Shown here: piece by piece, positions 2,115 through 64,000 of the stretch
How the letters are laid out: every line of letters begins with the position of its first letter
Numbering within the stretch: position 1 is the first letter of the stretch
Virus record (IMG/VR): IMGVR_UViG_3300028048_000078
DNA: 64,000 bases
Reading direction: 5' to 3' (one strand)
DNA from: an uncultured virus (IMG/VR IMGVR_UViG_3300028048_000078)
Lineage: Duplodnaviria > Heunggongvirae > Uroviricota > Caudoviricetes
The notes under the pieces: model-generated
What the model was told of the DNA's origin: nothing
Database searches by the model: none
What the model saw: the letters and a program-made list of their open reading frames with translations, nothing else
Position numbers and translations under genes: made by a program

Positions 2115-2955
2115 GAAACCATATTCCAAAGACCTTACTGATAAGCAGTTTGGTAAATTAACTGTTAAATATTATGTCGGTAAGAATAAGCGAGGGTGTA
2201 GTATTTGGCATTGTGAATGTGACTGTGGTAATGAGGTCGATGTTATTAGCTCTAGTTTGACCAGTGGGCATACAAAATCTTGTGGTTGTTTGCATAGTAA
2301 GAACATCACATTTAGGAAACCTTTGGCTGGTAAGGTTTTTAATCAAATTGAGGTGCTAGAGGATTATACTGACTTTGAGTATACTGGTTCTAATAGACAC
2401 TTTGTTAAGTGTCGTTGTCTTGTTTGTGGTACGGAGTTTACTACTAAAGCAACTGATTTATCTTGGAAATATTCATGTGGTTGTTCTACACTTAGGGGTA
2501 AGTCTAATATAACTCATGGTGAATCCAAAACACCATTTTATACCATATATAGGGGCATTAAGAGTAGGTGTTCTTCGCCTAGTGATACCAATTACAGTAA
2601 GTATGGTGCTAAAGGTATTAAATGTTTGTGGGGTACTTATGAGGAATTTAGGTCTGATATGTATGATAGTTATTTGGCTCATGTAGAGCAGTTTGGTAGG
2701 GAGAATACATCTATTGATAGGATAGATGTAAATGGGGATTACTGCAAAGAAAATTGTCGTTGGGCTACAATAGAAGAGCAAGCCAATAATAAGCACAGCA
2801 ATAAATTTTACACTTATTTGGGTGAAACACATACAATATCAGAGTGGGAAAGGCTGTATGGTATTAAGCGAGGAACTTTATGGGCAAGATTAAATGTGCA
2901 GGGTTTGGGTATAGGAGAAGCTTTAGACGGTTATAGTAGGTTATCTAAGGTGTGA
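2107..2955 (+). CDS. free-standing HNH-type homing endonuclease with Cys-rich N-terminal repeats
   Basis: Two CxCxxCG...SCGC-type repeats, then YGAKGI and SIDRIDVNGDYCKENCRWAT..EQANN. Confidence 0.85.
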   Translation: MYKKPYSKDLTDKQFGKLTVKYYVGKNKRGCSIWHCECDCGNEVDVISSSLTSGHTKSCGCLHSKNITFRKPLAGKVFNQIEVLEDYTDFEYTGSNRHFVKCRCLVCGTEFTTKATDLSWKYSCGCSTLRGKSNITHGESKTPFYTIYRGIKSRCSSPSDTNYSKYGAKGIKCLWGTYEEFRSDMYDSYLAHVEQFGRENTSIDRIDVNGDYCKENCRWATIEEQANNKHSNKFYTYLGETHTISEWERLYGIKRGTLWARLNVQGLGIGEALDGYSRLSKV

Positions 2956-3510
2956 ATGGTATTGAAATTAGAAGTTGAAACTTATGAGACAATGCCTTGT
3001 GAGCTTCAAACCTTTAGAATAAATGGTGTTGATGCAGAGCTAGAAGATTTTGGCATGGTCGTAAAAGAAGAATTTGATGGTTATGAATGTACTGATATTA
3101 GGTTTGAGGAAACTAATCAACCACCTCTAGGTAAGTATGGCTTAACCTATGAGGATTATGATGAAATTTGTCAAGTATTATCAAGTACATTCAAAATCGG
3201 AAGGTGCGATTGGTGTAGGTAATGAAAGTAAAAGTAGAAGGAACTAACGGAACAGTAAATGTATATTATTTAACTAATATTGATAGAATTCGTTTTCGTA
3301 ATGACACTATTCAAGTAGTTATATTAGATAATAGAGTGGTAACATTTAAAAAGCATAAGTCTTATAATACATCTGATTGGGGTGTTTTGACACATCAATT
3401 ACAGTCAGAGATAGATTTTACTTTGATAACTAAGCATAGTAAATTTGAAGAGACAAGAATTGTTAATGGTATAACCAACACGACTATACATTTGAAGGGA
3501 TAAAAGGACA

Positions 3511-4293: not shown

Positions 4294-4797
4294 GAATAAT
4301 AAGACTGATGAGGTAAAGCTTCTCCATATTCGTGATATAGTTTCCATAGATTATAACCCTGCAAATGATGATTTTGCAGAGCAGTTGGCTATTGAAACAA
4401 GAGATGGGTTTAGATATATCTTTGTAGATTATGCAAATTGTGATACTCTTCATGATATTTTAGATAAGTATTATGAAGATGAAGATGGGCGTGTCTATGT
4501 AGATGTAGAGAAGTTTAGGGTTAATGATGAGATGGACAGTAAAATGTTTATCCATTTAGATGAAGGAGTTGAATATTAATATGGCATTGAGTGAAAGAGC
4601 AAGAGCTAAGATTATGAAGAGTGAGTATGATGGAGTAAGAACACCTTATGTTCTTTTGAAGTCTCAGTTTAAGGCAGAGGAAAGAAAGATTAAGGCTCAG
4701 ATGCATGAGCTTGAAAAGAAACATAAGCACTGATTCTTACATGGAATGGGTGTGCTAACTATAGCACACCTTTGTTCTATTTGTAGGAGTGATTTAA

Positions 4798-7652: not shown

Positions 7653-9944
7653 ATGAGAACAATGTTTATTTTGCGTGGAGCGCCAGGTGTTGGCAAAGAT
7701 TATTGGGTTGACCAGAATGGTCTTAGACCATATACTATTTCAGCAGATGATATTAGATTGCTTTATCAGAGTCCAGTACTTAATTCTGATGGTGAAGAGA
7801 TAATTTCACAGGAGAATGATGGTGAGGTTTGGAAGTTGCTCTTTCAGTTGCTTGAAGGTCGTATGCAGAGAGGTGAGTTCATTGTAATTAATGCTACTCA
7901 TTATCGTAACTCTATGATTAGCAGATATAAGGATTTAATTCATAAATATAGATACAGAGCTTATGTAGTAGATTTTAGTGATGTTCCTTTGGAGACTATT
8001 CTTGAAAGAAATAGAACTAGGGATGCTTTTAAGTTTGTGCCAGAAGAGCATATCCGTAAGGTTTATGGTTTATTGCAGATTAAGAATAAGCCACAATCTT
8101 ATGCTAAGCTTATCACAAGAGATGAAGCAGTAGGGCTTTTACATCAGCAGATTTTTGATTATAATGAGTATAAGAATGTCTTTATTTTTGGTGATATTCA
8201 TGGTTGCTATGAGCCATTAGATGTATTCTTTAAGACATTCCCATTTAGTGAAGAAAATGCTTATATCTTTACGGGTGACTATATTGATAGAGGTATTCAG
8301 AATAAGGAAGTATTAGAGTTTCTTATGGGGCTGGCCAAGCATAAGAATGTGTTGTTGCTTGAAGGAAATCATGAGCACTCTTTGAGACTCTATGCTAATG
8401 ATGAAACTACTATTGAGCCTGTAGATAAAGAAGATGCAAAAATTCTTAAGAAGTATAATCGTGAATTATTGAAGAACATTAATAACAATAAGGTAAGAAG
8501 TCACAGATTTATTACTGAAACAGTTGAGCAGATTAAAGATATTCCTCGTAAGGACTTAAGAACATTCTGTGATAGACTTGGGCAGATGGCATATATTACA
8601 TTTAGGGGTAAGAATTATTTTATCTGTCATGGTGGTATTCCATGTTTGCCTACAATCTTTACACCAACTTATCAGCTTATTCAAGGTGTGGGTAGATATG
8701 AAGATACTATTGAGCTGTATGAGCATTGGTATGATAAAGAGACTGTTATGGTTCATGCACATAGAAATGTATTGAGCCACCCAATTAAGGTAGAGGATAA
8801 TATCTATAATCTTTGTGATGAGATTGAGAGCGGTGGAAATCTTAGAATACTGCATTTGCATGATACAGGTGTAATTGTTCCTTTGTTTATTAAGAATAAT
8901 ACTTATGCTGAGCGTACAGTAGGTAAGCCTGTATTAGATGAGGTAGTTACTGATGAAAGTTCATTAAGTGAAGCTGACTTAATTATTAAGAGACTCAATG
9001 ATTCTAGGTATGTAAAGCGTAAGGACTTTGGTAAGATTTCTTCTTATAACTTTACACAAGAAGCTTTTAAGAAGGGTAAGTGGAATGAACAGACCTGTAA
9101 GGCTAGAGGATTGTTTGTTTATAATGATACTAATGAAATTGCTTTGAGAAGTTATCCTAAGTTCTTTAATTATAAGGAGAGGGAAGAAACTACACTTGAT
9201 GCACTTAAGAAGAATCTTGTATTTCCTTTGAAGTGTTATCGTAAGGAGAATGGCTTCTTAGCTTTAATTAGTTATGACCATGAGGCTGATGAGATGTTGT
9301 TTGCTTCTAAATCTTCTTTAAGTGGTGACTATGTTGAATATATTAAAGATATCTATAGCAGATTGCCACAGAAGAACAGAGAAGGTATTGAAGCTATGGT
9401 AAAGAATAACAAGGTGACTTTGGTGTTTGAATGTGTGTGCCATAAAGATAATACACATCCAATTTGGTATATGTATGAACACTTTTATTTACTTGATATT
9501 ATATATAATACATTTAATTTCAATAAACTTCCTTATGAGAAGGTTAAGGAGTTTGCTGATGAATATAATATTGAGGTTAAAGAGTTGGTTGATACATTTG
9601 ACACCTTTGAAGAGTTCTTTACCTTTAAGAAGTCAGTTGATTCTATGAGTCCTAATGCAAAGAAACCTTCACATGAAGGATTTGTGTTTGAAGATGCTAC
9701 AGGATATATGTTCAAGTATAAGTTACCGTTCTATAGATTTTGGAAGTCTATGCGTGGAATGTTAAATAAGTTGCAGGGTAAGAACAGAGTTGAGGCAGAA
9801 GCTAAGATGGTATTCCGTGAAGAAAGAGATGTTAAGGTATTTGGTATTCTTAGCAATATTGCTGACTTAAGTGATTTAACTATAGTTGATGTAGAGCGAA
9901 TGTTCTATGGAGATGAATTAGTTCCAGTAGATAGGAGAGATTGA
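7653..9944 (+). CDS. trifunctional RNA repair enzyme: polynucleotide kinase + metallophosphoesterase + Rnl1-like RNA ligase
   Basis: P-loop GAPGVGKD; calcineurin-like GDIHG, GDYIDRG, GNHE, HGG; ligase SYPKFFN, motif I KENG, EGFV, KYK. Confidence 0.9.
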   Translation: MRTMFILRGAPGVGKDYWVDQNGLRPYTISADDIRLLYQSPVLNSDGEEIISQENDGEVWKLLFQLLEGRMQRGEFIVINATHYRNSMISRYKDLIHKYRYRAYVVDFSDVPLETILERNRTRDAFKFVPEEHIRKVYGLLQIKNKPQSYAKLITRDEAVGLLHQQIFDYNEYKNVFIFGDIHGCYEPLDVFFKTFPFSEENAYIFTGDYIDRGIQNKEVLEFLMGLAKHKNVLLLEGNHEHSLRLYANDETTIEPVDKEDAKILKKYNRELLKNINNNKVRSHRFITETVEQIKDIPRKDLRTFCDRLGQMAYITFRGKNYFICHGGIPCLPTIFTPTYQLIQGVGRYEDTIELYEHWYDKETVMVHAHRNVLSHPIKVEDNIYNLCDEIESGGNLRILHLHDTGVIVPLFIKNNTYAERTVGKPVLDEVVTDESSLSEADLIIKRLNDSRYVKRKDFGKISSYNFTQEAFKKGKWNEQTCKARGLFVYNDTNEIALRSYPKFFNYKEREETTLDALKKNLVFPLKCYRKENGFLALISYDHEADEMLFASKSSLSGDYVEYIKDIYSRLPQKNREGIEAMVKNNKVTLVFECVCHKDNTHPIWYMYEHFYLLDIIYNTFNFNKLPYEKVKEFADEYNIEVKELVDTFDTFEEFFTFKKSVDSMSPNAKKPSHEGFVFEDATGYMFKYKLPFYRFWKSMRGMLNKLQGKNRVEAEAKMVFREERDVKVFGILSNIADLSDLTIVDVERMFYGDELVPVDRRD

Positions 9945-15160: not shown

Positions 15161-18100
15161 ATGTTATTTAATTTACCTACAAGAAATGAACCTACAGTTG
15201 ATGATATTATCAGAAAGGCTCACACAAAGAAAGAATATAAACCAAAAGTTAAGGTTAAGGGCGGTACTTTATCTGATAAAATTAGAGCTATTTGTGATAA
15301 GGTAAAGCAGAATTTGGGTGATGTTCAATATAGACTCATTACAAAAGATGAAGATTTTATTGATTACTGTAAGAAAGCTATAGGTTGTGAATTTGTATCC
15401 TTAGATACAGAGACAGATGGTGTAGATACTATGCTTGTTAATCTAGTTGGTGTATGTATTAAATCAACTAATCAAGATAGTGTATATGTACCAGTAGGAC
15501 ATATTTCAGCTATTACTGAGGAATTATTAGATGAACAAGTAAGTAAGAAAGCTATTCATGATGGCTTACAGTTACTTATAGACAACAACACAAAATTTGT
15601 GTTTCATAATGCTTATTTTGATATTGTATTGCTTCACAACCAAGTAAATGTAGACATTAAAGCATGGTTTGATACACTTATAGCTTCACAGTTGCTTAAT
15701 GAAAATGAGCCACATGGTTTGAAACAGCTTTATGCTAAGTATTGTGCTAATACTGACGAATATCATAAATTTGGTGAGTTGTTTGATGGAATACCTATTA
15801 GTTATATTCCACCACAGATAGCAGGATATTATGGACAGTTTGATACAGTACAAACAGAAGCTTTATGTAGATTTCAATTACCTTACTTAACTGTAGGAAC
15901 AGAAGAGTGTAAAGAGTATAATTTAGAGAGAGTAGCTAAGTTGTTCTGGGAAGATGAGATGCCTTTGGTTGAGGTATTAGTTGCTATGAAGCTTACAGGC
16001 ATTGAGTTTGATTTTAAGCAAGCAGAAGTCCTTAAGAAGAAGTATGGTAAACTTAGAGATGAGGCAGAGATTAAATTTAATCAAGCTACAGAGCCTATTA
16101 GGGGTGGTATTGATAAGTACAATTTCATTCATAAAGATAAACCTATTCCTTATCCTGTAAATTATAATAGCCCAGACCAAATGAAAGCTATATTTTATGA
16201 TATTTGTGGTTTACCTAAAGACTATTATAGAAAGAAGCCTGGGGCAACAGGAAAAGAAGTAAGAGAGTCTATCTTAGCTGATAAGAACTTAAAGAATAAA
16301 CCTATCTATAAGATAGTAGAAACTTTAACAGAAGTTAAAATGTATGATAAAGCTATAAGTGGTTTTGTAGAAAAACTAACAAATGATGCAATAGAACATG
16401 GGGGTAAAATCTACTGTAATATAAATCAGTGTGGAGTTGATTGCATTACTGCGGATTCCCTTATAATTACTGACAGTGGGTATTATCCTATTGGAACTAT
16501 AATAGATGATGATTTTGGGGATATGAATATTGTTAATAGGTATGGCGAGTATGAAACTACTGGTGGATGTGTCAAGTTTACAGATAGTAATACTGTAAAA
16601 ATGACTACAGTATATGGTTTTACTTTAGAGGGTACACCAAATCATCCTATACTCAATGATTGCAGAGAGTTTGTTAAATTGGGTGACATAACCACAGATG
16701 ATTATGTATTCATTCCTTTAGGATATAATAAATTTACGACCAAGTATCATAAGCTCAATAAGGATATCCCATATAAAAAACTTTACGGCAAATCCTTAGA
16801 TATGTGGAATAATGCTCCAGACACCTTAAATGAGGATGTTGCATTATTAATGGGCATTTATCACGCTGATGGTTCAATTCATACAGCAAATGGAAGTTAT
16901 TCTATGCGTATTGAAAATCACAATGAGTATGCAATAGCAGGTATTGTAGAGGCATTAAAGCGTGTTGTTGGAGATAATGTAACCTATACAAAGAGCTATA
17001 ATAAGTCTTGGGATATGCAACGAAGTACCATGACGATTAGTGGAATAGGCATTAGTTGGTTAGATAAGTATATAAAACATGGTGCAAAGAATAAGGTGAT
17101 ACCGAAAGAGATATACACATCACCAAAGTCGGTTATCTTAGCTTATATTAAGGGATTAACCTTAGATAGCAGTTTTGGTAGAGATAGACTTGTGATGAGT
17201 GTGTACAATAAGCAAGATGCTTACTTTATTCAGTCTGTTTTGGCAAATATTGGAGTATTAGCAGGTGTAAGGTCAGCTAAGAATAAGGGAGATTGGTTTG
17301 GTTATAAAGTAACTATAGGATATGATGATTATAATAAGTTTATGCATGAGGTAGGTTGTATGTATGATTATCCTATGAAAGTAAATAAGCGGTCACGCTA
17401 TGTTGATGCTAAAAGAGTAGATGATGGTATTTATGTTAAGGTTAAACATATAGCACAAGGTAAAGCTGATGTGTATGATTTCAAAGTACCAAGAACACAT
17501 AGTTTTATATCAAACGCTATTGTATCACATAATACAGGTAGGCTTTCTTCAAGTGAACCTAACTTACAGCAGATACCATCGAAGCTTGGGGATATTAGAA
17601 CTATGTTCAGAGCAGGAGATGGTTGTGTATTTGTTAATTGTGACTTCTCAAAACAAGAGCCATGTATATTAGCATCAGCCAGTCAAGACCCTAAGTTAAT
17701 CGAAGTATTCCATAGTGGCTTAGATATTTATGGTAAGATTGCTAGTATGATGTATGATATGCCTTATGAGGAATGTTTAGAGTTTTATCCAGATGGAACT
17801 ACTAATCATGAGGGTAAAAACAGGCGTTCAGCAGCCAAGAAGGTAACATTGTCGATAATGTACTCAAAGGGTGTAAAATCCTTATCAGAGGACATACATT
17901 GTACAGTAGAAAAGGCACAAGAGATTTATGATAGTGTATTAACTGCATTTCCTGTTATGGCTAGTTGGATGGAGCAAACTATTAAAGATGCTTATGCTAC
18001 AGGTATGATTGACAATATTTATGGTCGTAGAAGAAGATTACCAGACCTTCTTTTGCCTAAGTTTGAGTTTGATATTCCTTCTGATGAAGCTCATGTAGTA

Positions 18101-18361
18101 GACTTTTATAAAAAATTCTATACAGATAAACTCAGTAAGGTTTGGAAAGATGCTGATGTTAATAAAATAAAGAATGAAGCTAGGGATTATGGTATAATTA
18201 TTACAGATAATCGTAAAAAGATAGCTGAGTCTTATAGAAAGATTATAAATTTCTGTATTCAAAGTGGTGCAGCTGTAATAACTAAGAGAGCTATGCGTAA
18301 CATTTATAATAATAAACGATTAAGAGAATTAGGTGTGAAACTTATATTATCTGTACACGAT
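15161..18361 (+). CDS. polA: family A DNA polymerase, exon 1 (contains intein)
   Basis: ExoI DTETDG, ExoII FHNAYFD, TGRLSSSEPNLQQIP, motif A DFSKQE, motif B RSAAKKVTLSIMY, YGRRRRLP, NFCIQSGAA; ends LSVHD at the 5' splice site. Confidence 0.95.
16442..17533 (+). mobile_element. intein (364 aa) with LAGLIDADG endonuclease domain in polA
   Basis: Starts CITADSLI, block B GTPNHPI, LMGIYHADG and YIKGLTLDS endonuclease blocks, block F VYDFKVPRTHSF, ends VSHN, +1 residue Thr of TGRLSS. Confidence 0.95.
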
Positions 18362-18470
18362 AAGGAAACATGGAATTGTCGTGTCTAAACCTCTCGATAT
18401 GCTGGGAAGTATGAACGCAACACACTAAAGCAAAATGGGAAACCATAAGTGTAAATGTTTTAAAAAGTTG

Positions 18471-18499
18471 TTGCAATTTCACATAATATATTGTATAAT
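18471..18499 (+). promoter_or_regulatory. sigma70/sigmaA-type promoter inside the intron, driving the endonuclease
   Basis: TTGCAA-17 nt-TATAAT with a TG immediately before the -10; GGAG RBS at 18521 overlaps the Q element. Confidence 0.7.
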
Positions 18500-18533
18500 G
18501 TGAATATATATAATCAGCAGGGAGTGACTTAAT

Positions 18534-19154
18534 TTGTATAATAATAATGAAGAACAATTATTTTTATCTTCTAAAATTGGTGATGGACACTGTTATATAA
18601 GTAAACAAAATATAAATGCAAGAATTAGATATATGAGCGTTAATAAGGAATACCTACAATTTAAGAAGTCTATTATTGATTCTAGTGATTTTACTTGTAG
18701 TGAGATAAGAGTTAAAGATAATAGTAAAGGCTATAATAAACAAGGTATAATATATACATTAGATGTTTTTACTAACCCTAAACTTAACGGAATAAGTAAT
18801 TTAAGTAAACTAGAGGTGATTAAGAACTTAAACTATTTTGGGTTTTTAATTTACTACTTAGATGATGGGTCTTTTCACAAGTGTCGTAAGACTATGCACA
18901 TATATTGTAATAGCTTTAGTGCGGAAGAAGTAAGTGCATTACAAGATAAAGTATATGAACTTTTTCCATATAAGCGTTGTACAGTACATATTGATAAGAA
19001 AGCTGATGGTAGAGCTTACCCTTATCTGTATGTACCTAGAGTAACAGTAGAGGCCATTATAAGACAATATAGTGAGTTTATGTTAAATAATAAATACTTA
19101 CATAGTATGTTATACAAATTAGGTCTACCCTCACAGACTATCGAAAAGCAGTAA
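18534..19154 (+). CDS. intron-encoded double-motif LAGLIDADG homing endonuclease
   Basis: LSSKIGDG and LIYYLDDGS motifs; TTG start; lies in L6 and runs into P7. Confidence 0.88.
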   Translation: MYNNNEEQLFLSSKIGDGHCYISKQNINARIRYMSVNKEYLQFKKSIIDSSDFTCSEIRVKDNSKGYNKQGIIYTLDVFTNPKLNGISNLSKLEVIKNLNYFGFLIYYLDDGSFHKCRKTMHIYCNSFSAEEVSALQDKVYELFPYKRCTVHIDKKADGRAYPYLYVPRVTVEAIIRQYSEFMLNNKYLHSMLYKLGLPSQTIEKQ

Positions 19155-19268
19155 TATTACTGAACTTAGTAGAGTAGGGCAGTGTTGAAATACACTGTTC
19201 CGAAGTGGGAGGCACTACATATTGTAGTGAAGATATAGTCGAGTGCAATAATAAAATTGTACGAAAAG

Positions 19269-19460: not shown

Positions 19461-19516
19461 GGGTTGACAAATACCCTACAGTATGTTAAAATGTATACAT
19501 ACTGGGAGGGAGAACA

Positions 19517-20116
19517 ATGAAAGATAAAGCAACACAACTATTATTAACTGGTAGAATAGGTGATGGACACCTATACATTGATAGGAAGAATAAGGATGCT
19601 AGTGCTAAATTCTTTGGTATTATTGAGGATTATATTAAGTTTAAGCATGACATCTTAACTGATTATGGTATTACTTGCAGTGATGTTAAGGGTTATGTGA
19701 ATAAGGGAGCATATAAGACAGATAAGCCTTTATATGGTCTTTATGTTCACACTAACCCTAAGATTACTGAGGTATATAAAATGGATAGGTTAGATGTCAT
19801 TAAGAACTTAGATTACTTTGGGTTTTTGATTTATTTTCTTGATGATGGCTCTTTCCATAAGAAGGTTAAGGGTGCTAATCTTTATTGTAATAGCTTTAAT
19901 GCAGAAGAAATAGAAGCACTTAGGGAAAAGATTTTTGAGCTTTTTCCTGTAAAGTATAGCAGTGTGTGTGTAGATAGACGAAAGAATGGCAAATGCTATC
20001 CATATCTTTACATACATAAGGCTACAACAGAAGTAATAACTAACTATTATTATCAGTATATGGTTGATACTAATGAACTTCATAAGTTGACTTATAAGTT
20101 GGGGTTTATGGTTTAA
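19517..20116 (+). CDS. free-standing LAGLIDADG endonuclease, paralog of the intron-encoded enzyme
   Basis: LTGRIGDG and LIYFLDDGS motifs; own promoter (TTGACA 19464-17-TAAAAT) and GGAGG RBS. Confidence 0.88.
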   Translation: MKDKATQLLLTGRIGDGHLYIDRKNKDASAKFFGIIEDYIKFKHDILTDYGITCSDVKGYVNKGAYKTDKPLYGLYVHTNPKITEVYKMDRLDVIKNLDYFGFLIYFLDDGSFHKKVKGANLYCNSFNAEEIEALREKIFELFPVKYSSVCVDRRKNGKCYPYLYIHKATTEVITNYYYQYMVDTNELHKLTYKLGFMV

Positions 20117-20715
20117 GGGGTAGGAAAAAAATGAATAAAACAACATTATTTATTTATGCCACAATAATCGTAGTATTACTTATTGTTGGTGAAATTGTTT
20201 TACATTGGCAGAATGTTGAAGCTACTGTAAATCATGTTGAGTCAGAAATTGTTGTTATAAAGCTAGTTGATGAGCGATATAGAGTTGTTGAGTATGAAGG
20301 AGAATTGTATTGGCAATCTAAGGCTCATAGTTTTATGAATGGTGACTATTGGATTATGGGAGGAAAAGTGAAGTGAGATTATGTTACATTGATGATGAAG
20401 AGATGATTATGTACTTTACTGAAGCTGTTGGTGATGAAATTATTGCTGACGATTGGGATGACAGTCCTTATGAGCATAATGCTTCACCACCTTATGATGA
20501 GTTTGTTGAAGCAAGAATTGTATATAATGATTGCGGAGTTTTTAACTATCCTCGTACAGGTCATTTAAATTCACCTTATAGTGTTGATGATATTAATAAA
20601 GGTGCTATACCTTGGGTTTGGTATCGTAATCATGGAACATTAAAGGCTGGCCAAACAATAACAACAGTCAAAGATAAATTAGATGAATGGAATATACCAT
20701 ATAAGGAGTTTAAAC

Positions 20716-21771
20716 GTGGAGAGAAAATGCCTAACGAAACTGATTTGTGATGTAATTAGAAATGTAATTAAGCTTGACCCACTAAGACCTATTACGGATT
20801 TGGTAGAGTTGTATGCTTCTGATGGAGTATTACACATTGGGGCTACTGATGGCTCTACTAGAATTGTAGGTACTTTGGAAAGTGATGTAGAGTTTGATAA
20901 CATTGTGGTATCTTTATCTAGATTAGCTAAATTACTTAGTCTCACAACAAAGGATAAGGTAAGTCTTAAGGTTGTTGATGGCTACTTACACTTTAAGGGT
21001 AATGGTAGTTATAAGATACCAGAGCAATTAAATGAAAATGGTGGAAAGATTTCCCTTAATTTGTCTATGCCAAACTTTGATGGAGAGCCTATTGAGGTAG
21101 ACATTGAAGGATTTAGTACGGCTATGGCAAGAAATAGTCTGTCTTTGTATACAGGAGATGCACAACCATTTTTAAGAAGATATTGTTGTAAAGATGAACA
21201 CATCATCACTACTGATTGTGCTACTATGTGTGTAAGTAAAGGTAAACTGCCTTTAACTGAGATGTATCCTAAGATGGTACAGCAGTTGGCTTTTATGCCA
21301 GACAAGTTTCTTTTCTTGGATACAGGCAGTGGTTATAGAGTAGAGTGTGGTAATATCAAGATGTTTATGCTTTTAGAGAAAGCTACAGGCTTTCCTATGA
21401 ATATTATTGACCCATTCTTAGAGTTACCTACAACAGTAGAGAATAAAGTTACTATTGATAAGGGTGAATTTTTAGGACTTATTAAGAGAGCAGAACTCTT
21501 TAACTCTACATTAGAGACTGTACCATCTGTATTCATTTCAGCTAGTGGTGGTGTTATTACAGTTCACTCAAAGGACGAAGCTTTTAGCGAAACTCTTAAC
21601 TGTACAGATACTAAGATTTCTGATTTCAGTATGAGGTTTTCATTGAAGCATTTGGGGAACTTTTTACGTAAAGTTAATGGAAATCTTACTCTATATTTTG
21701 GGGATAAATTAATGGTGATTGAAGATGAATTGGGTTATTATGTTTTATCTGTGTTAGGGGAGAATAAGTAA
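20716..21771 (+). CDS. sliding clamp (DNA Pol III beta/DnaN-like)
   Basis: ~350 aa; N-terminal P..D.VEL.A.DG.L.IGATD pattern, second TTD repeat, C-terminal RFS..HL..FL; GTG start after AAGGAG; clamp loader encoded at 37.7 kb. Confidence 0.7.
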   Translation: MERKCLTKLICDVIRNVIKLDPLRPITDLVELYASDGVLHIGATDGSTRIVGTLESDVEFDNIVVSLSRLAKLLSLTTKDKVSLKVVDGYLHFKGNGSYKIPEQLNENGGKISLNLSMPNFDGEPIEVDIEGFSTAMARNSLSLYTGDAQPFLRRYCCKDEHIITTDCATMCVSKGKLPLTEMYPKMVQQLAFMPDKFLFLDTGSGYRVECGNIKMFMLLEKATGFPMNIIDPFLELPTTVENKVTIDKGEFLGLIKRAELFNSTLETVPSVFISASGGVITVHSKDEAFSETLNCTDTKISDFSMRFSLKHLGNFLRKVNGNLTLYFGDKLMVIEDELGYYVLSVLGENK

Positions 21772-27300: not shown

Positions 27301-30024
27301 CAGTATACTCAAAAATATCTAAAGCTGGGAAGTTTTATTTAGTTGATGGTAGAAAACTTAGCGTAAAGATTGTTTTAGATTTTGGGTTAGCTACAAAGTA
27401 TGATGATTGCTTGATGTTTCATTATAAACTAAGAGAAGAACCTATAAGTCTAACATATAAGCACTGTATAGCAGAAGCATTATATAGATGGAATAATTTG
27501 ATATTGTCGGGGGTAGAGTAATGGTATTTGTATTAGGGTTTGCATTAGTTTTATGTTTATTTATTATTTATTGGCAAAGTGAGTTTATAAGAAATTTGTT
27601 CCACAAAGATTGTTATAAATGTTCTATAAATAACTTTTGTCTATCTTATAGGGATTCAGATGTATATAACTATAGATGTGTAGAGGCTTATAAGAAGTAT
27701 ATAAAGGAGCATTGGTTATGATTAGTGAGATAGTTTATTTATGGGAACATATAGAATATGCAGTAATAAATGAAGATGTACCAAGACTTATTAGGTTGTT
27801 GAATTATATGACTAAGCGAGTCAAAACACTTAAAACTGACGAAGATTTGCACACATATCATCAAATATTTCTACCATGCTTTCGTGATATTGATAATACA
27901 GAGTATATAGAAGCATGTAATAATTTCTATTACGCAGTTAAAAGTGAGATAAAGAGAGCTTGCGATTTAGGTCTTGGTATGTATGGTGGGAATCCAAGAA
28001 TATTAGGGCACAGTTATAGAATAAGATAAGGAGAAATTAAAATATGATTACAATTCTTTTAATGTTTATTGGTTTATTATTTGTTGCAGGACTTGCAGTT
28101 TATGGCTATTATACATATGTAACGAAAAAGTATAATACCATTGAGTTAGGAGATATTAGTCATTTTATCTGTGACTCTTGTGGCGAAAAAATAAGTGTTG
28201 ACAAATTCGATGGAAAGTGTCATAATTGTGGTAGTGAAAGTTTTACTATTTATTTTTAAGGGAGTAAAACCTATGGAATTAACTGATTTAATAATAAGTA
28301 ATAATTTGGGTAATGATTTGTTATTAAGCTTATGGAATACTGAAAACACTATTCCAACTGTAATTGAAATATATATAGATGAGGAAGATGCTTATGCTCT
28401 TTATAGAGTTATTAATGAGTTCTTTACCCACCACCTTACATCCACTGACTTAACCATAGGACATGGGTATTTATTCAAATTATCTAATATAGATGATAAT
28501 GTAACATTAAATATTATTGATACTATAAAGGATAAGGAATATAGGTATGACTTTAAAAACCACAAGTATTCTTCAGATTATCACAGCAAACAAATAATTG
28601 CACCAAAGTTAAAAGTCATTCAAGAGAAATTACACTCATACTTTAGTAGAATTTAAGAAAGGAGAATGTTAAATGCTTGAATTATTATTGATGGCTCAGT
28701 TATCCCTATGTAATCCACAAGTAACTTATAGAGCAGAGGACTACGAATGGGAATATTATCAGTTACTTAAGGAACATGAAGAGTTACAGGAAGATTATGA
28801 TGAACTGGAGGATAAGTATGGAGACAGAGAAGAATATCAACCACCTTACTATGAAGATTAAAGGAGATGTTAAATAATGGAACCAGTTATTAACCCTTGG
28901 ATTATTTATTGGGTATCAGTATTAAACAATATTGGGAGTACATTGAGTCTTATAGTTTGTATGTCGGTAGTTAGCTCTGTTATAATTGGTGTAGTGCATT
29001 TGTGTGATTTATCAGATAATTATAGTGATGATTTAGGTTTCCCTAATTGGTTTAAATATTTTAAGCTTAGTGTTGCTATAGCTTGTATTAGTGGTTTGAT
29101 TTGTATATTTATTTCAGATAAACAGACTATGCTAACCATGATAGTGACTTCATACATTACACCAGACAACCTTAATATTACTACAGATTATATAGTAGAA
29201 TTGGTACAGAGAATTACAGAAGCAGTAAAGGAAGTGAAATAGTGTTATTTGTTAAAGTACATAACCCAATCGTTAAAGCTGATTTCTTAATTAATGTTGA
29301 GCAGATTACATCCATTCATATAAAGGATTGTAATATTTGGTTGACAGATGGTGGTGGTCAGCTTACACTTGATGCTGTAAGTATAAACAAGATACTTAAT
29401 ATCTTAAAGACAGAGGGTGCTATAATTGATAATTAGTTGGTGCATATTGTTATACATTCTTATAGGTATCGTGTTTACAACCTTAGTTTGTAAGTTTGGT
29501 ACTGATGATGGCTTTATTCATGTCGATGAGATGCTACTTAGTATATTCTTCTTTTGGTTTATAGCTTTGTGGTATACATGGGAGTTATTTAAGGAGTGGT
29601 TTGAGTGATAAATTTTGAGAGTCCTATTACTATTCGTGATGATTTAGCTAGTCTCATTGACAATCCAAATTTTGTTGAGACTAGTGAGACTGTACAAAAC
29701 TGTGTTATAGCTATGTATCAAGCAGTAAATAAGTTTATTATTGAAAATAAGCTTGACACTGAGGCTGATTGGTAATAAAGGGAGATTATACAAATGAAAG
29801 TCTATGTTGTTATAGAGTCAGTTAGAGAGTACCCTTATGATACCAATATTCTTGGGGTATTTAATGCTAATACTACAAGTGAAAATGATATTAAGGCATT
29901 TATCTATAATTACATAAAAGAGGATTGCTTCGGTGGCGAAGAGCCAAACGAAATTGACTTCTATGATGGCACTTATGATAATGGTAGTGTAGTTGTTGAT
30001 TATATTATAGAAGAAGTACGATAA
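24329..30024 (+). other. cluster of ~20 short hypothetical phage genes
   Basis: Tightly packed + strand ORFs with overlapping start/stop codons and RBSs; no recognisable motifs. Confidence 0.7.
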
Positions 30025-30066
30025 ATATTTCTTGACATTGTAATTATTATGTGGTATACTTATCAC

Positions 30067-30257
30067 AGAAATAAGATAAACTAAAGCTTTACAGCTCTTG
30101 AAAACCGATAGTGGTAGCAACTATCCTGTACACTGGTAGAGTTTTGGGTGTACACCACTGTAAACTATTTTATATTCATACTACCTATTAAAACGGTAGA
30201 TACCCACTGTACAAGTCGAAGTGCAGTGGGTACAAGTATTTAACCAAGGAGGACGTT
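30067..30257 (+). ncRNA. candidate structured 5' leader RNA (pseudoknot plus two hairpins)
   Basis: Promoter TTGACA(30032)-17-TATACT; ~190 nt leader with no RBS-backed ORF and several pairings (see findings). Confidence 0.6.
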
Positions 30258-31082
30258 TTGGCTAGAAAAAACCTTTTAAATTTAATAGCTAATGCTACAA
30301 CAGAAGATGTAACTAAAGAATTTGTTACAGACTTAAATTATGCTATTGAGAAATACGAAAAGACAGACAAAAGACCACCTAGTAATACACTTAAACCTTC
30401 ATCTATCAGATGTGTTCGTAGTGGTGTATTTCAAGTTTTGGGTGTACCTATGAATGAAGAACCAGCAAATTCTAATCTTATTGGTATTTGTGAGAGTGGT
30501 ACTTTTGTCCATGAGATGATTCAAGGTAAAGTCCTTAGAATGAAAGAAATTGGGCTTAATTGGGAATATATCAATGTAGCCGAATATGTCAAAAGTCATA
30601 ATCTTAATTTAGAGGTTAAGAAAGAATGTGACTTTGAAGCAGGAGAATTTGAGACAAAGCTTTATGACCCTGTAAGAAACATCAGTTTCCTTTGTGATGG
30701 TATCTTAAAGCATGGTCGTAAGTATTATATCTTTGAGATTAAATCTATTAGTAATGGTAAGTTTTATAGCACTAAAGAAGTACCTGCAAAGTACAAAGAC
30801 CAAGCTATTGCTTACTCAGAGCTTTTAGGTATTGAAGATGTTTTATTCCTTTTTGTTGATAGAGATTTGTACAATAAAAAATCATTCCTTTACACGCCTA
30901 CAGAAGAAGAAAGACAAGGTTGGAGAGATAGAGTAGAATATGCTTTAGAGTGTATTCGTGACAGTAAGATTCCTACTAAACCAAATTTTGCAGATAGAAG
31001 TTTTTGTGCTTACTGCCCTTATACTGACATCTGCAATCAAGTAGGTGACGAGGAAAGTGAGTACAACAGGGAAACAATTTGA
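30258..31082 (+). CDS. Cas4-like PD-(D/E)XK exonuclease with Fe-S cluster
   Basis: PSSIRC, GTFVHE, CDGIL..FEIKS, Q...Y, C-terminal CAYCPYTDIC. Confidence 0.85.
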   Translation: MARKNLLNLIANATTEDVTKEFVTDLNYAIEKYEKTDKRPPSNTLKPSSIRCVRSGVFQVLGVPMNEEPANSNLIGICESGTFVHEMIQGKVLRMKEIGLNWEYINVAEYVKSHNLNLEVKKECDFEAGEFETKLYDPVRNISFLCDGILKHGRKYYIFEIKSISNGKFYSTKEVPAKYKDQAIAYSELLGIEDVLFLFVDRDLYNKKSFLYTPTEEERQGWRDRVEYALECIRDSKIPTKPNFADRSFCAYCPYTDICNQVGDEESEYNRETI

Positions 31083-31509
31083 AAAAGTATTTAGGGAACA
31101 GGCATCTAATTTAAAAGATGTTTATGTTTATAGATTAGTAGACCAAGTATCTTATCTAAAAGGTAGCACAAATCCTTGTGATTTCTTTTGCTTTAAGAAA
31201 CCGAATTTTTATTTAATAGAGTGTAAGACTACAGAAGTCCCTTCCTTACCAAGAAAAAACATTAGTGATGGCCAGTTACATGATATGTACGAAGCAGTAA
31301 AAACCAAAGGCGTTAAAGCCTATGTTGTTGTTTGGTATTATAAGAAGGACATCTGTAGGGCTTTTCCTATTGAGTATGTTTGGAAACAATTTATAGAAGA
31401 AGGGAAGAAATCTATTAACTACCAAGATGAGCATGGAATTTTAATCACAGGAACAAAGAAAAAGAAATACTTTGATTGGAATTGGCAAGATTTATTCAGT
31501 AAGAAGTGA
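31045..31509 (+). CDS. recU: RecU-like Holliday junction resolvase
   Basis: GKQFE, NPCDF, LIECKTT, NISDGQ. Confidence 0.8.
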   Translation: MTRKVSTTGKQFEKVFREQASNLKDVYVYRLVDQVSYLKGSTNPCDFFCFKKPNFYLIECKTTEVPSLPRKNISDGQLHDMYEAVKTKGVKAYVVVWYYKKDICRAFPIEYVWKQFIEEGKKSINYQDEHGILITGTKKKKYFDWNWQDLFSKK

Positions 31510-31518
31510 GGGATTAAA

Positions 31519-32016
31519 TTGAAAGTCAATAGTGATTTGCAGTTGAGTGTTGAGCAGAATAGTGAACAGCTTAATGCAATACTAGACGGATTAGTAAAGG
31601 ATTATACAGATGCTATGGACGAGTACATAGACAAAATCCGTGTATTCCTTGAAGATGGTGTAGAACAACTTACACTTGAAGAACTTAATAATATTATGCT
31701 AAGAATTTCTACCTATAACTACTTTTTAGCGGGTAGACTTGAAAAGGCAGGTATCAAATCATCTGTAGCACAGGCTATGAGGGATGAAGCCTACAGTAAA
31801 GCCTATAGAAACCAAGTTAGTGGTACTATTGAGCATAAGAAGGCTGTAGCCAGTGAAGCTATTGTAGATGAAGAAGTTGTTAATATTATTTACAGTAGAC
31901 TCTATAAGCTTTTAAAAGCTAAATATGATAGTGCAGTTAGACTTATTGAAGGTTTGCGTAAGATTATTACAGCTAAAGTAGAAGAAATGAAGTTAGCACA
32001 GATTAAGGGGTTGTAA
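31519..32016 (+). CDS. helical protein, possible recombination mediator
   Basis: All-helical coiled-coil ORF between recU and recA; function inferred from context only. Confidence 0.45.
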   Translation: MKVNSDLQLSVEQNSEQLNAILDGLVKDYTDAMDEYIDKIRVFLEDGVEQLTLEELNNIMLRISTYNYFLAGRLEKAGIKSSVAQAMRDEAYSKAYRNQVSGTIEHKKAVASEAIVDEEVVNIIYSRLYKLLKAKYDSAVRLIEGLRKIITAKVEEMKLAQIKGL

Positions 32017-32020
32017 TTTA

Positions 32021-33145
32021 TTGAGTAAATTAGAAGATGCAATTAAAAAATTAAACAAAAATCATGGGCAGGACATTATTACTACTGATAAGGATGCAGT
32101 AGCTTTTGAAATTAAGGATAGAGTACCATTTCCTACAACTGCATTAACTTATTTGTTTGGTGGTAATATGCCTACAGAAACACTATGGGAGATTTCTGGC
32201 GGGTATAGTTCTGGAAAGAGTAGTATTTGTGAAGCTATTGCTGGTGAGTTTCAACGACATTATAAAGCTAAGTGGGAAAATAGAATTACAGAACTTGAAG
32301 CATTAGATAAACCAACAAAGACAGAAGCCACAGAACTTGCTACACTTAAAGAAGAAGGCTATAAGAGAGTATTGTGGCTTGATGCAGAGCAGTCTATGAA
32401 AGACATTAGTTGGGTAAAGAAAAATAAGCTTGACCCAGATGATATTGTTTATATTAGACCAGATGAACAGAGTGCAGAAGAACTTTTAGATGATGTTATT
32501 AAGCTTGTAGAAACAGGCGGTATTTGTTTAGTAGTTATTGACTCATTGGCAGCTCTTACATCAGCTAGTGCATTAAAGAAAGATTTGACTGAGAAAACAT
32601 ATTGTGGAATTTCTGGCCCACTTACTACGTTTACAAGTAAAATTTTGCCATTACTTACAGCAAAGGGTTGTACTTGTATTTGTATTAATCAAGAGCGAGA
32701 TGTACTTAATGCTATGTTCCCAACAACAAATACCCCAGGTGGTAGAGCATTTAAGTTTGGCTGTCATGTTAGACTTTCTTTCCGTAAGGGTAAAGGACTT
32801 GATGAAAAACTTAGTGAAATCCCTAATAATTCTGAGAGTTTTTATGGACAGTTAGCAGAAGTTAGTGTAATGAAGAATAAAGCTACTCCACCTAAAAATA
32901 GGTTAGCTAAATTTACTATTACTTATGATAATGGTGTATTTGGCGAGAACGATACAGTAAACCTTGCTATTGCACTTAATTTGATTAATCAGAGTGGTGC
33001 ATGGTTTAGCTATGTGGATGAAAATGGTGAAATCAGTAAGGATTTAAAGTGGCAAGGCAAACCAAATTTATTAAATTATGTATTAGAACACAAAGACTTC
33101 TATAATGAACTTAAACGTAGAGTAGAAAAACAGATTATTCAGTAA
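32021..33145 (+). CDS. recA: RecA recombinase
   Basis: GGYSSGKS, LDAE, VIDSLAAL, INQER, TPGGRAFKF, KNK, QSGAWF, KWQG. Confidence 0.95.
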   Translation: MSKLEDAIKKLNKNHGQDIITTDKDAVAFEIKDRVPFPTTALTYLFGGNMPTETLWEISGGYSSGKSSICEAIAGEFQRHYKAKWENRITELEALDKPTKTEATELATLKEEGYKRVLWLDAEQSMKDISWVKKNKLDPDDIVYIRPDEQSAEELLDDVIKLVETGGICLVVIDSLAALTSASALKKDLTEKTYCGISGPLTTFTSKILPLLTAKGCTCICINQERDVLNAMFPTTNTPGGRAFKFGCHVRLSFRKGKGLDEKLSEIPNNSESFYGQLAEVSVMKNKATPPKNRLAKFTITYDNGVFGENDTVNLAIALNLINQSGAWFSYVDENGEISKDLKWQGKPNLLNYVLEHKDFYNELKRRVEKQIIQ

Positions 33146-34250: not shown

Positions 34251-34774
34251 AAGAGATAGCATTATATCAGTGAGGTGTTGAGCATTGGAGTTTGTAATCC
34301 GAAGTGACAAGGCAGAATTCAAAGTTTTCAATGGGCAAAAGGCAAAGATTTATAGAAGAAGAGAGGATGGTTTCATAGAGGTATATATACCTGCTATGGA
34401 CATTTTCATTCTTGTTTTGCCAGAGGAATTGGAGGAATTTTGATTGTTAATTCATTCAGCATCAGAGCTAAAGGCTATTTCTGAAAAAGCCATTAAAACC
34501 AAAGCTTATGAGAATGACATTTTAAAGTCTTGTGAAGTAACTACAGTAACAGCTAAACAATTAGCAGAACAGGGAGAGACAGAAGCTAAAGTCATTCTTG
34601 TAAACGAGGAAAAATGGATTAGTCGTAACTACCTTAATGATGTAGTCAAGGAACTTAAACATCGTGGCTACAAAAGAATTAGGTGGTCTGACGACACAGA
34701 GGTAGCAATTATTACTTGGATGTAAGGCACTATATCGCCATAGGGATAGGCATTGGCTTATCCCTAGAGGTGAT

Positions 34775-43020: not shown

Positions 43021-43692
43021 GTGGATAGCTTATTTAATGCTTTAGGTTTTCATAGACCTAAAGGAGAATATATAACTAAGATTGAGTATGACACAGCTTG
43101 CATGTTTCTTATGCCTAGACATTATAGTGGGAGGATACCTAACATAAAACATGCATTTGGGTTATTTGAAGATGGTGTTTTACAAGCAGTATGTACATTT
43201 GGTATTCCTGCTAGTCCACCACTATGTAGGGGTATTGCAGGAGATAAGTGGAAAAAGAATGTCATAGAACTTAATCGTCTTTGCCGTAAAGATGAGTACG
43301 ATAAACCATTATCACACTTTGTTGCTTGGTGTTTGAAGCAGTTGAAACCTTTTAACTACATTGTTGTTAGCTATTCTGATACGGCTATGAACCACCACGG
43401 ATATGTGTATCAAGCTTGTAATTTTTATTACACAGGAATGACTAAGGCAAGAACTGATAAGTATGTTGAAGGTAATAAGCACTGTAGACATTACGATAAT
43501 GCTAAGCAAGGTAATAAAAGAAGGGTAAGAAGTGCTAAGTATCGCTATGTATATATTTGTGCAGATAAGCGAACTAAAAAGCAAATATTGAAGGATTTGA
43601 AGTACCCTATTCTTGACTATTATCCTAAAGGAGATAATAGTAACTATGTTTTAGGTGAATATCTTAAGGAACAAGTGATTGAGGTGAATTAG
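43021..43692 (+). CDS. Mom-like adenine modification (GNAT-like) protein
   Basis: HYSG, FGLF, IELNRL, VSYSD....H.GYVYQACNFYYTG, KYRY. Confidence 0.8.
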   Translation: MDSLFNALGFHRPKGEYITKIEYDTACMFLMPRHYSGRIPNIKHAFGLFEDGVLQAVCTFGIPASPPLCRGIAGDKWKKNVIELNRLCRKDEYDKPLSHFVAWCLKQLKPFNYIVVSYSDTAMNHHGYVYQACNFYYTGMTKARTDKYVEGNKHCRHYDNAKQGNKRRVRSAKYRYVYICADKRTKKQILKDLKYPILDYYPKGDNSNYVLGEYLKEQVIEVN

Positions 43693-52230: not shown

Positions 52231-52750
52231 AGTCAAAAAACACTGTCAAATAGCTATGTCAAAAATAGGTGTCAAATAGCTAGCTGGCTCTCACTATACA
52301 ATACTATTGACTTTGTAAATTGGTGTATTGACATTATTAGTGTGTGTTTTTCCTATATATATAGAGAAAATACACACTTTTTCTTTTTTTTCTATATATA
52401 CTGAAACATATATAGTTGTGTTTTTCTTATATATATACTAAGAATAATACCATATATCTTTTTTGCCCAAAGGATTTTGTATTTTTCCTATATATATAGA
52501 CAATATACATATTCTTTTTGTTTTTCCTATATATATAGATAACAATATACATCTCTTTTCTTTTTTTCTTTCCCCCAGAGGACTTTGTGTATTTCTCTTA
52601 TATATATACTAACAATACAATAGTTGTTATTTCTCTATATATATATACATATATAATCTCTTCTTCTTTTCTTTTTTGCCCAAAAGGTACTTTGTGTTTT
52701 TCTATATATATATACAGAAATACATATAATCTCTTTTTGCCCAAAAGTTT
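52231..52750. repeat. AT-rich non-coding repeat region, candidate replication origin
   Basis: Four 13-bp-period (T/A)GTCAAA units, about eight TTTYCYTATATATA units, three TTTTTGCCCAAA. Confidence 0.6.
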
Positions 52751-63326: not shown

Positions 63327-63516
63327 CTTTAGCAGACTAAAGGGCGAGGTAGCCTACTTCACCCATGTAGCACTTTAGCACGTTAAAGTCTTAAAGCTTT
63401 AAGACTTTAGCACGTTAAAGTGTTAAATAATTAAAACTTTAGCACGTTAAAGTGTTAAAGCTTTAATACTTTAGTATGGTAAAGTTGTAAAGTTTTAGTG
63501 CTTTAGCAGACTAAAG
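63327..63516. repeat. 32-bp-periodic array of alternating 16-bp palindrome-like units
   Basis: CTTTAG-n5-TAAAG units at 63327, 63373, 63405, 63437, 63469, 63501. Confidence 0.85.
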
Positions 63517-64000
63517 TCTGACTTTTTGCTGATTTGACCTTTTGACCTTTTGACTAATTAACCTTTTGACTTTTTAAAAGTTAAAAATCTTTTTACTTAG
63601 TCAGATGCCCTTATTTGCTAATGACTATTAACTTTTGAATTGAAAAGTTAAAAAAAGTTTATACTTGTCCTGAGACTCGCATAAGTGAATAGTTATTAAC
63701 TAATGTGTTGGTGTTGTTCGCTTTTGTCTGATTTTGGGGATAATGGCCACTTTATAAATGCCTCTGTAAGGCCACCAGATGCCCTGTATTCGTTTTTATG
63801 GTATAAAGGTATAAATATATGGGTTGTTGTCGTTGCGTTTAACCTGTGCAATTCTCAATTAGAAGCCTTGATATATAAGGGTTTTTGGTATGATAATGAG
63901 TATCAAGTAGCGGTATTTGTGGCTAAACTTTGTTCTGTTTAAGTAGTATATGAATTTTGCCTAATGTATTAAGGTGAAAGTCTAGGTCCGGCCCTTATAT

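Follow-up and report, generated by a model that had tools for sequence, protein, structure and literature searches.

The pocket of the c-di-GMP-II riboswitch (RF01786; PDB 3Q3Z) includes residues A61, A69, A70 and G73, and small changes can retune this scaffold to cGAMP (PMC13715770). Protein-binding leaders are known from phage T4, where gp32 and gp43, two proteins of DNA metabolism, each bind a pseudoknot or hairpin in the leader of their own mRNA and thereby repress its translation; according to an excerpt of the same source, some relatives lack the gene 32 structure, and its mechanism requires an unstructured A+U-rich track up to the ribosome-binding site (RBS) (PMC3014915). Intergenic stem-loops of the SRPS type set transcript ratios (PMC4423207, excerpt). 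Phage RNAs can also act in trans, as with pseudo-ToxI of phage PhiTE, an RNA decoy of a type III toxin (PMC3594212, excerpt), and a defence system that cuts the variable loop of tRNAs has been described (PMC13096335, excerpt). Here we compare with these systems positions 30067-30257 of an uncultured phage, predicted to hold an unrecognised, pseudoknotted leader RNA with switch potential. We conclude that this element is a real, unusual and lineage-restricted structured RNA region.

The element lies on the + strand of the window, as we call the whole 64,000-nt stretch of DNA analysed. Upstream of it, a sigma70-type promoter at 30032-30060 (TTGACA-17-TG-TATACT) matches 11 of 12 consensus positions and carries an extended -10 (TG); since it ends at 30060, transcription would be expected to start near 30067. 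The + strand has 60 consensus-like sites, some of them chance sites inside genes; of these, this promoter has the longest distance to the next RBS and start codon, 191 nt (median 25). The Shine-Dalgarno site of the next gene (30246-30252) is unpaired with H5, the last hairpin of the leader. That gene (30258-31082) encodes a Cas4/RecB-like PD-(D/E)XK exonuclease (Pfam PDDEXK_1, E = 1.3e-5; 32% identity to Dp-1 gp11 RecB); behind it, at 31045-33145 on the same strand, a Pfam search identified recU and recA, with a 165-aa ORF that matches no Pfam family between them. As originally predicted, the leader lies ahead of a Cas4-RecU-RecA operon; it would be transcribed from the near-consensus promoter upstream.

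The phage genome to which the window belongs has a Dp-1-like replication set. In Dp-1 and Bacillus phage Flasso, dnaN stands immediately before the cas4 homologue. In the window, the ORF at 20683-21771, probably DnaN-like to judge from its position and length, is separated from the cas4-like gene by ~8.5 kb of mostly small ORFs; none intervene in Dp-1 or Flasso, which marks the interval as an insertion hotspot. The Cas4 protein had no close relative in viral contigs, genome contigs or 401 genomes. Near-identical DNA is present in bovine gut runs, and an MFS transporter gene of the phage (23061-24275) has as its sole genome match a Phascolarctobacterium record, at 61%, a weak pointer to what may be the host group. 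The phage copy of this gene has no leader; ahead of a bacterial MFS relative (L381, 1360-1440) lies what we take to be a ZTP-riboswitch-like leader. A search of the literature, mostly open-access, gave no description of the element at 30067-30257. A related motif may be described in the supplements of PMC10690425, whose candidate motifs DNAVirus_3054 and DNAVirus_6063 are placed ahead of Cas4 and PDDEXK_5 genes.

Every helix listed in the original prediction is present in the sequence. P1 (strands 30088-30094 and 30158-30164) closes a structured core at 30088-30164. Behind its 5' strand, the junction 30095-30106 (CTCT, TGAAA, ACC) can pair with 30135-30141 as the proposed P2/P3, CTCT (30095-30098) with AGAG (30138-30141) and ACC (30104-30106) with GGT (30135-30137), around TGAAA. 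An inner hairpin of 6 bp with a 7-nt loop occupies 30107-30125 (pair probability ~0.7), and an 8-bp helix with one G-U pair spans 30127-30154 (strands 30127-30134 and 30147-30154; pair probability 0.77). Then come H4 (30181-30199), a 5-bp hairpin recognised from the pairing of CTACC with GGTAG, and H5 (30201-30232), a 12-bp hairpin without a U-tract that is the third-strongest 50-nt fold of the window. The sequence CCACTGTA occurs at 30155 and 30204, as had been noted, and these are its only two copies in the window. All these features are on the + strand, as is the variable 5' segment ahead of the core (30067-30087), which is replaced by unrelated sequence in another haplotype and within which a contig departs from the window after 30081 (X5 records 14 and 15, X2 record 5).

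Comparison with shuffled sequences gave a mixed picture of this fold. The whole leader had a folding z of -2.57, with 1 of 200 shuffles as good. For segment 30196-30240, which holds the last hairpin, z was -6.0 and none of 300 shuffles did as well; for the core alone (30086-30166) z was -0.93 and 58 of 300 shuffles folded as well, so that the folding signal comes mostly from the last hairpin. In the nested ensemble H5 has a pair probability near 1 and P1 one of only 0.28. The full set of helices, scored with post hoc thresholds read off the element itself, was absent from all 3000 shuffles, 5 of which showed its nested part. Among 1121 window tiles, none of which held the whole element, the full pattern was reached by none and its nested part by 8.

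The claim that the leader is pseudoknotted stands as far as pairing potential goes. The 8-bp helix is a plain hairpin in the nested fold and would form a pseudoknot only with P2/P3 also in place. Its weight is another matter: the seven crossing pairs are at chance level, matched by 612 of 5000 shuffles of both segments (12%), and P2/P3 has a probability of ~0 in the nested ensemble, or 0.07 with the 8-bp helix blocked. Because ViennaRNA does not score pseudoknots, this low probability does not exclude one. The core is plausibly a real fold, and a three-way junction would fit it equally well as a pseudoknot.

The topology had been likened to c-di-GMP-II riboswitches, and the outline does recur. 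The element shares with the family the order of landmarks (a G-C-closed P1, UGAA, UG..CAC/GUG, GAG), and its 3' junction of 14 nt after GAG-N-N is as long as in the Rfam consensus. If the residue numbering of the family is transferred onto 30139-30158 (+ strand), this stretch would read as GAG, 2 nt, the 14-nt junction and the C of P1, with pocket positions changed (T30144, C30153, C30156). A relaxed landmark score, designed after the element had been seen, picks out exactly this site: with P1 and P3 included, none of 1500 shuffles reached the 36.0 of the element, which came top of 1278 window tiles (chance sites 33.6), and no site reached 36 in 1.19 Mb of relative loci (chance sites up to 34.7). 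These features, together with two pseudoknot pairs that in the family register are changed on both sides and the fact that small changes can retune the scaffold to cGAMP (PMC13715770), would speak for a derivative of c-di-GMP-II that binds a new ligand and switches cas4-recU-recA. The same post hoc score also argues against it, since 25 real members score 57-79, chance sites come close to the element, and on sequence alone 18 of 400 shuffles were as good (10 of 400 with the pseudoknot pairs).

The departures from the family are numerous. c-di-GMP-II has an unpaired A after P1 and a 3-bp P2; the element lacks this A and has 4 nt instead of 6 between P1 and UGAA, with P1 and P2 competing for 30093-30094. 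The original prediction had remarked on the absent A-rich junction after P1; the 5' junction is 2 nt short. P3 has ~8 bp and a 16-nt loop in the family, and 3-4 bp and an inserted hairpin in the element, the inner hairpin being absent from c-di-GMP-II; the linkers measure 20 and 5 nt, where the 25 members have 9-13 and 12-15 nt. The family also has a kink-turn, with a 3-nt bulge and tandem G-A pairs; the element has UGAA and GAG and may form one, in which case its bulge would measure 4 nt and its closing stem a single base pair. P4, a pseudoknot with two bulged bases, is possible in the family register, with the doubly changed pairs; a continuous 8-bp helix is also possible and would pair away the bulged pocket bases. 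Of the pocket residues A61, A69, A70, G73 and the floor A, 4 of 5 are altered or absent, A30152 being kept as the equivalent of A69; equivalents of A13, A61, A70 and G73 are missing or changed, and the CC pair partner is changed. The GAG variant (RF03169) keeps GA after P1, A after P2 and ACC-G in the 3' junction, all lost in the element, and the model of the GCG variant (RF03170) gave no match to it at E up to 10.

Model searches agreed with these departures. Rfam gave no match to the element at the gathering threshold nor at E up to 10, RF01786, RF03169 and RF03170 included, and the description of the element as unrecognised was thereby confirmed. We fetched real RF01786 members, aligned 25 of 30 loci and built from these 25 a covariance model (R2), which likewise gave no match over the element (best local score 3.3 bits). 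RF01786 was found in 0 of 50 related phage records. The element is not, from its sequence, a member of c-di-GMP-II, and descent from that scaffold is possible.

The last strand had been proposed to invade P1 through the second copy of CCACTGTA. Forcing this copy into P1 gave -31.7 versus -49.0 kcal/mol, ~17 kcal/mol uphill, and co-transcriptionally the copy gains nothing over a P1 already formed; the proposal is not supported. The cheapest other rearrangement among those tried costs 9.6 kcal/mol. No intrinsic terminator (GC-rich stem plus U-tract) was found in 29500-30500, and no expression platform, of the kind that c-di-GMP-II has, was found in the element, which precedes phage recombination genes: H5 is without a U-tract and does not hold the RBS. 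With no terminator, no RBS-sequestering platform and alternative folds 9.6-17 kcal/mol uphill, the element is probably not a switch. H5 is likely to be a 3'-protective or partial-termination stem. A ligand-binding riboswitch is the least probable of the explanations considered here, given scores far below those of members, no match to Rfam or R2, the altered pocket, the missing platform and the absence of such a leader from 89 homologous loci.

These 89 loci, all with a cas4 homologue (35-54% identity, some duplicates) and enough upstream DNA, belong to a wider search in which no homologue was found beyond near-identical strains, leaving no covariation to draw on. By blastn against annotated phages, only the promoter was matched (9 records). 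Four motif scans of viral contigs returned 34, at least 117, 12 and 69 stretches, none of them a homologue on inspection of the flanks, and the best nhmmer E-values were 3.8 over 114 loci and 5 over 249 loci. R1, a single-sequence model, had no match in 50 related phage records, drawn from 81 virus loci, or in 46 loci. Its 3 matches among 140 genomes from the putative host family all lie inside the coding sequence of a gene that we take from its peptide to be mlaE; a peptide search put these at E ~0.1, and they were rejected as chance. A DNA search of these 140 genomes gave 4 short chance matches only. CRISPR-repeat mimicry, suggested by an apparent resemblance, had no Rfam support and was likewise rejected.

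In 84 of the 89 cas4-homologue loci an upstream ORF ends 59 nt or less from cas4. Among the 16 relatives with a gap of at least 35 nt, 6 have a hairpin of ~10-15 bp without a long U-tract that ends just before the cas4 RBS, which makes H5 an ordinary feature of this junction. In locus L108 this hairpin comes after genes for tRNA-Met and tRNA-Leu, so in relatives the slot upstream of it holds independent genes. The tRNA genes just upstream of cas4 were seen at 2162-2437 in L108 and at 2477-2550 in L050. In a distant relative, L074, a 121-nt multibranched structure (2880-3000) lies between a dnaN-like gene and cas4. It has a 7-bp helix and a GAG spacing like those of the element; R1 does not align it (E = 0.15), a loose pattern of its type occurs 18 times in 1.34 Mb, and a relation to the element is a weak lead.

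The element stands in the 5' leader of nuclease genes that may be toxic, a position that suggests a translational operator in cis, in which RecA, the exonuclease or the 165-aa ORF product would bind the core and repress the nuclease. T4 gp32 and gp43 provide the precedent, and the gene 32 operator resembles the element as a possible leader pseudoknot of a phage recombination or replication gene that is lineage-limited, its structure not being kept in all relatives (PMC3014915, excerpt). The layout speaks against such repression: the core ends ~80 nt short of the RBS, with H4 and H5 insulating the one from the other, the unstructured track of gene 32 (same excerpt) is missing since H5 forms with a probability near 1, and the downstream gene, unlike gene 32, does not encode an SSB. 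No such leader was found in the 89 homologous loci, and we consider an operator rather unlikely.

A resemblance of another kind was found to tRNA. The stretch 30096-30126 resembles the anticodon loop, the 3' stem strand and the variable arm of tRNA-Ser(UGA), with 12-nt identity over anticodon loop and 3' stem (the 5' junction of the core), then a hairpin of variable-arm size (the inner hairpin) and CC. One viral tRNA has 16 nt exactly in common with the element; tRNA-Ser of the putative host family has just 11. A profile of 102 viral tRNA-Ser(UGA) sequences had its only window match at 30095-30119 (E = 0.02), a test that is circular because the sequences had been picked by the same 12-mer. In contrast to tRNA-Ser, the anticodon stem of the element is unpaired and there is no D-arm, T-arm or T-loop and no acceptor end, and ARAGORN found no tRNA. 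We treat the possible likeness to tRNA-Ser as a lead and not as a result.

The only comparative data for the element come from strain contigs, for which all contigs of 4 of 6 listed runs were compared (X1, X2, X5 and X6; X3 and X4 were left out). In X5 record 15 the core (30090-30168) has 1 change in 79 nt and the next 89 nt at least 11 (Fisher p = 0.006); in record 5 of X2, an RNA-library run from another study, the core has 2 changes in 91 nt and the 3' flank 11 in 81 (p = 0.007), the 3' flank counts being deduced from overlapping records. The core divergence of 1/79 is no different from that of the cas4 coding sequence, 21/816 (p = 0.71), and a contrast of this kind between core and flank could also stem from recent recombination. 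In this alternative haplotype identity starts at 30090, inside the 5' strand of P1 and behind an unrelated 5' flank that leaves P1 with ~5 pairs. The dominant X5 allele (record 13) has 32 substitutions in ~300 nt, with positions listed for a minority of them, and 9 gaps, none of which lies before 30155: the 5' arm of H4 has one and the H5 loop four. C30194T falls in the H4 loop. In X1 record 1 (depth 4.4), the alignment has 7 nt missing at 30157-30165, across the 3' strand of P1. Near-identical pieces of the element are present in RNA-library contigs (X2 records 5 and 6), which is no proof of transcription. The near-identical X2 contigs cover only 30090-30379 of the 1.7 kb compared; as contigs show neither levels nor ends, missing cover elsewhere carries no weight.

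The strain data also bear on an element acting as DNA, in which GTAC-centred palindromes at 30127, 30149, 30208 and 30229 would be tandem operators of a phage regulator and the RNA helices a by-product. Out of 35 TGTACA sites in the window, three are clustered here in 90 nt, one palindrome is perfect over 10 bp (30147-30156), and the sites form two pairs spaced 21-22 bp apart. C30233T, present in X5, X2 and X6, tells against these operators, destroying the fourth site while adding a 13th pair to H5. The genome-wide ratio of GTAC, 0.99, shows neither depletion nor enrichment, no such cluster was found in the first 60 nt past other promoters, and this explanation is improbable.

After 30081 one contig departs from the window sequence, which another contig takes up again at 30090, so some strains probably have extra sequence between promoter and core. 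If the two contigs overlap directly, this putative sequence would have ~106 nt, with room for a peptide of 40 residues. Such haplotypes suggest that the gap may be a deletion or insertion scar left by a lost small gene or cassette, with H5 an ordinary junction feature and the core helices incidental. The hotspot of small ORFs where dnaN and cas4 adjoin in Dp-1 and Flasso, the core z of -0.93 and the chance-level crossing pairs fit a scar, and the three weak likenesses (riboswitch, tRNA, MlaE peptide at E ~0.1) show how easily chance matches arise. An incidental origin sits less well with a full helix set seen in 0 of 3000 shuffles and with a core that, in two runs of different studies, diverges less than the 3' flank; moreover, none of the three + strand frames of the core has a start codon with an RBS, and a 29-aa frame had no Pfam match. 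We regard a scar as doubtful, though it is the alternative to which we give most credence.

The explanation that we favour, tentatively and at rather less than an even chance, is a small non-coding phage RNA that has its promoter in common with cas4-recU-orf-recA, is protected at its 3' end by H5 and serves as a protein decoy. It builds on the promoter consensus, the pairing potential, the strength of H5, the conservation of the core in one haplotype and the absence of a canonical platform. The host-type sigma70 promoter would fire at ~30067, and the first 100 nt would fold in vivo into a compact core in which P1 closes two helices, possibly pseudoknotted. H4 and H5 would follow, H5 as a leaky stop or a 3'-protective stem, leaving a stable RNA of ~165 nt to accumulate in excess over read-through mRNA and damping expression of the nuclease. 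During infection the released RNA would most likely bind a host protein in trans as a decoy, like pseudo-ToxI, the first candidate target being a tRNA-recognising defence nuclease.

Several findings argue for this small RNA: the longest leader of 60, a core kept relative to its flanks in X5 and X2, gaps confined to 30155 and beyond, the pre-cas4 hairpin in 6 of 16 relatives, the tRNA-Ser match, and a fusion of AAA_33 kinase, metallophosphatase and T4 Rnl1-type RNA ligase encoded at 7653-9944 of the window. Kinase-phosphatase-RNA ligase fusions are of the type that repairs broken tRNA. Precedents add to this. Like the element, pseudo-ToxI is a short, pseudoknot-capable phage RNA in a strain-variable region (PMC3594212, excerpt); unlike it, pseudo-ToxI and type III antitoxins consist of tandem ~36-nt repeats, where the longest internal repeats of the element are 7-8 nt, and pseudo-ToxI has a cognate toxin, none being known here. 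H5 is like SRPS-type stem-loops in being a strong stem without a U-tract before an RBS that recurs in relatives (PMC4423207, excerpt); it differs in that its upstream partner is non-coding and in being known from sequence alone. Against the small RNA stand the lack of homologues, the core z of -0.93, a core divergence like that of cas4, the 32 substitutions of the dominant X5 allele, the 7-nt loss in X1, the ~5-pair P1, and the circularity and incompleteness of the tRNA-Ser match.

A very improbable variant of the small RNA would combine it with the riboswitch outline: a c-di-GMP-II scaffold captured by the phage, remodelled with a new pocket, a compensated pseudoknot and an extra hairpin, and released as a small RNA that sponges an immune nucleotide signal. 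Anti-CBASS protein sponges are the protein counterpart of such an RNA. A literature search gave no clear report of RNA sponges for immune nucleotides. Nucleotide binding, if true, would make this a ligand-binding RNA used as a sponge and not as a switch. A protein decoy, if true, would enlarge the small set of non-coding RNAs that phages direct against host defences; this gut phage lineage has genes for RNA repair and DNA modification besides. As things stand, this is a single-lineage element without covariation.

Other features of the window were observed in passing. GATC is absent from the whole window (0 versus 123 expected) and CCGG, GCGC and CGCG are nearly so; a gene of the Mom family is found at 43021-43692. 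At 18389-19256 the DNA polymerase gene is split by an insert that holds a LAGLIDADG ORF and that we take, from its core motifs, to be group I intron-like; Rfam at E 0.1 gave no match for this putative intron. The polymerase ORF at 15161-18388 seems, by its motifs, to hold an intein. A second LAGLIDADG endonuclease gene with its own promoter (19464-20116) follows directly after the polymerase. A palindromic repeat tract with an 8-nt period (63333-63702) and a tract of at least four AT-rich repeats of 30-80 nt (52324-52735) are possible origin or terminal signals. Finally, long irregular hairpins without U-tracts occur at 4731, 6641, 34731 and 49291, possibly as processing or translation-control stems; at 34731 the hairpin takes in an RBS and a start codon.
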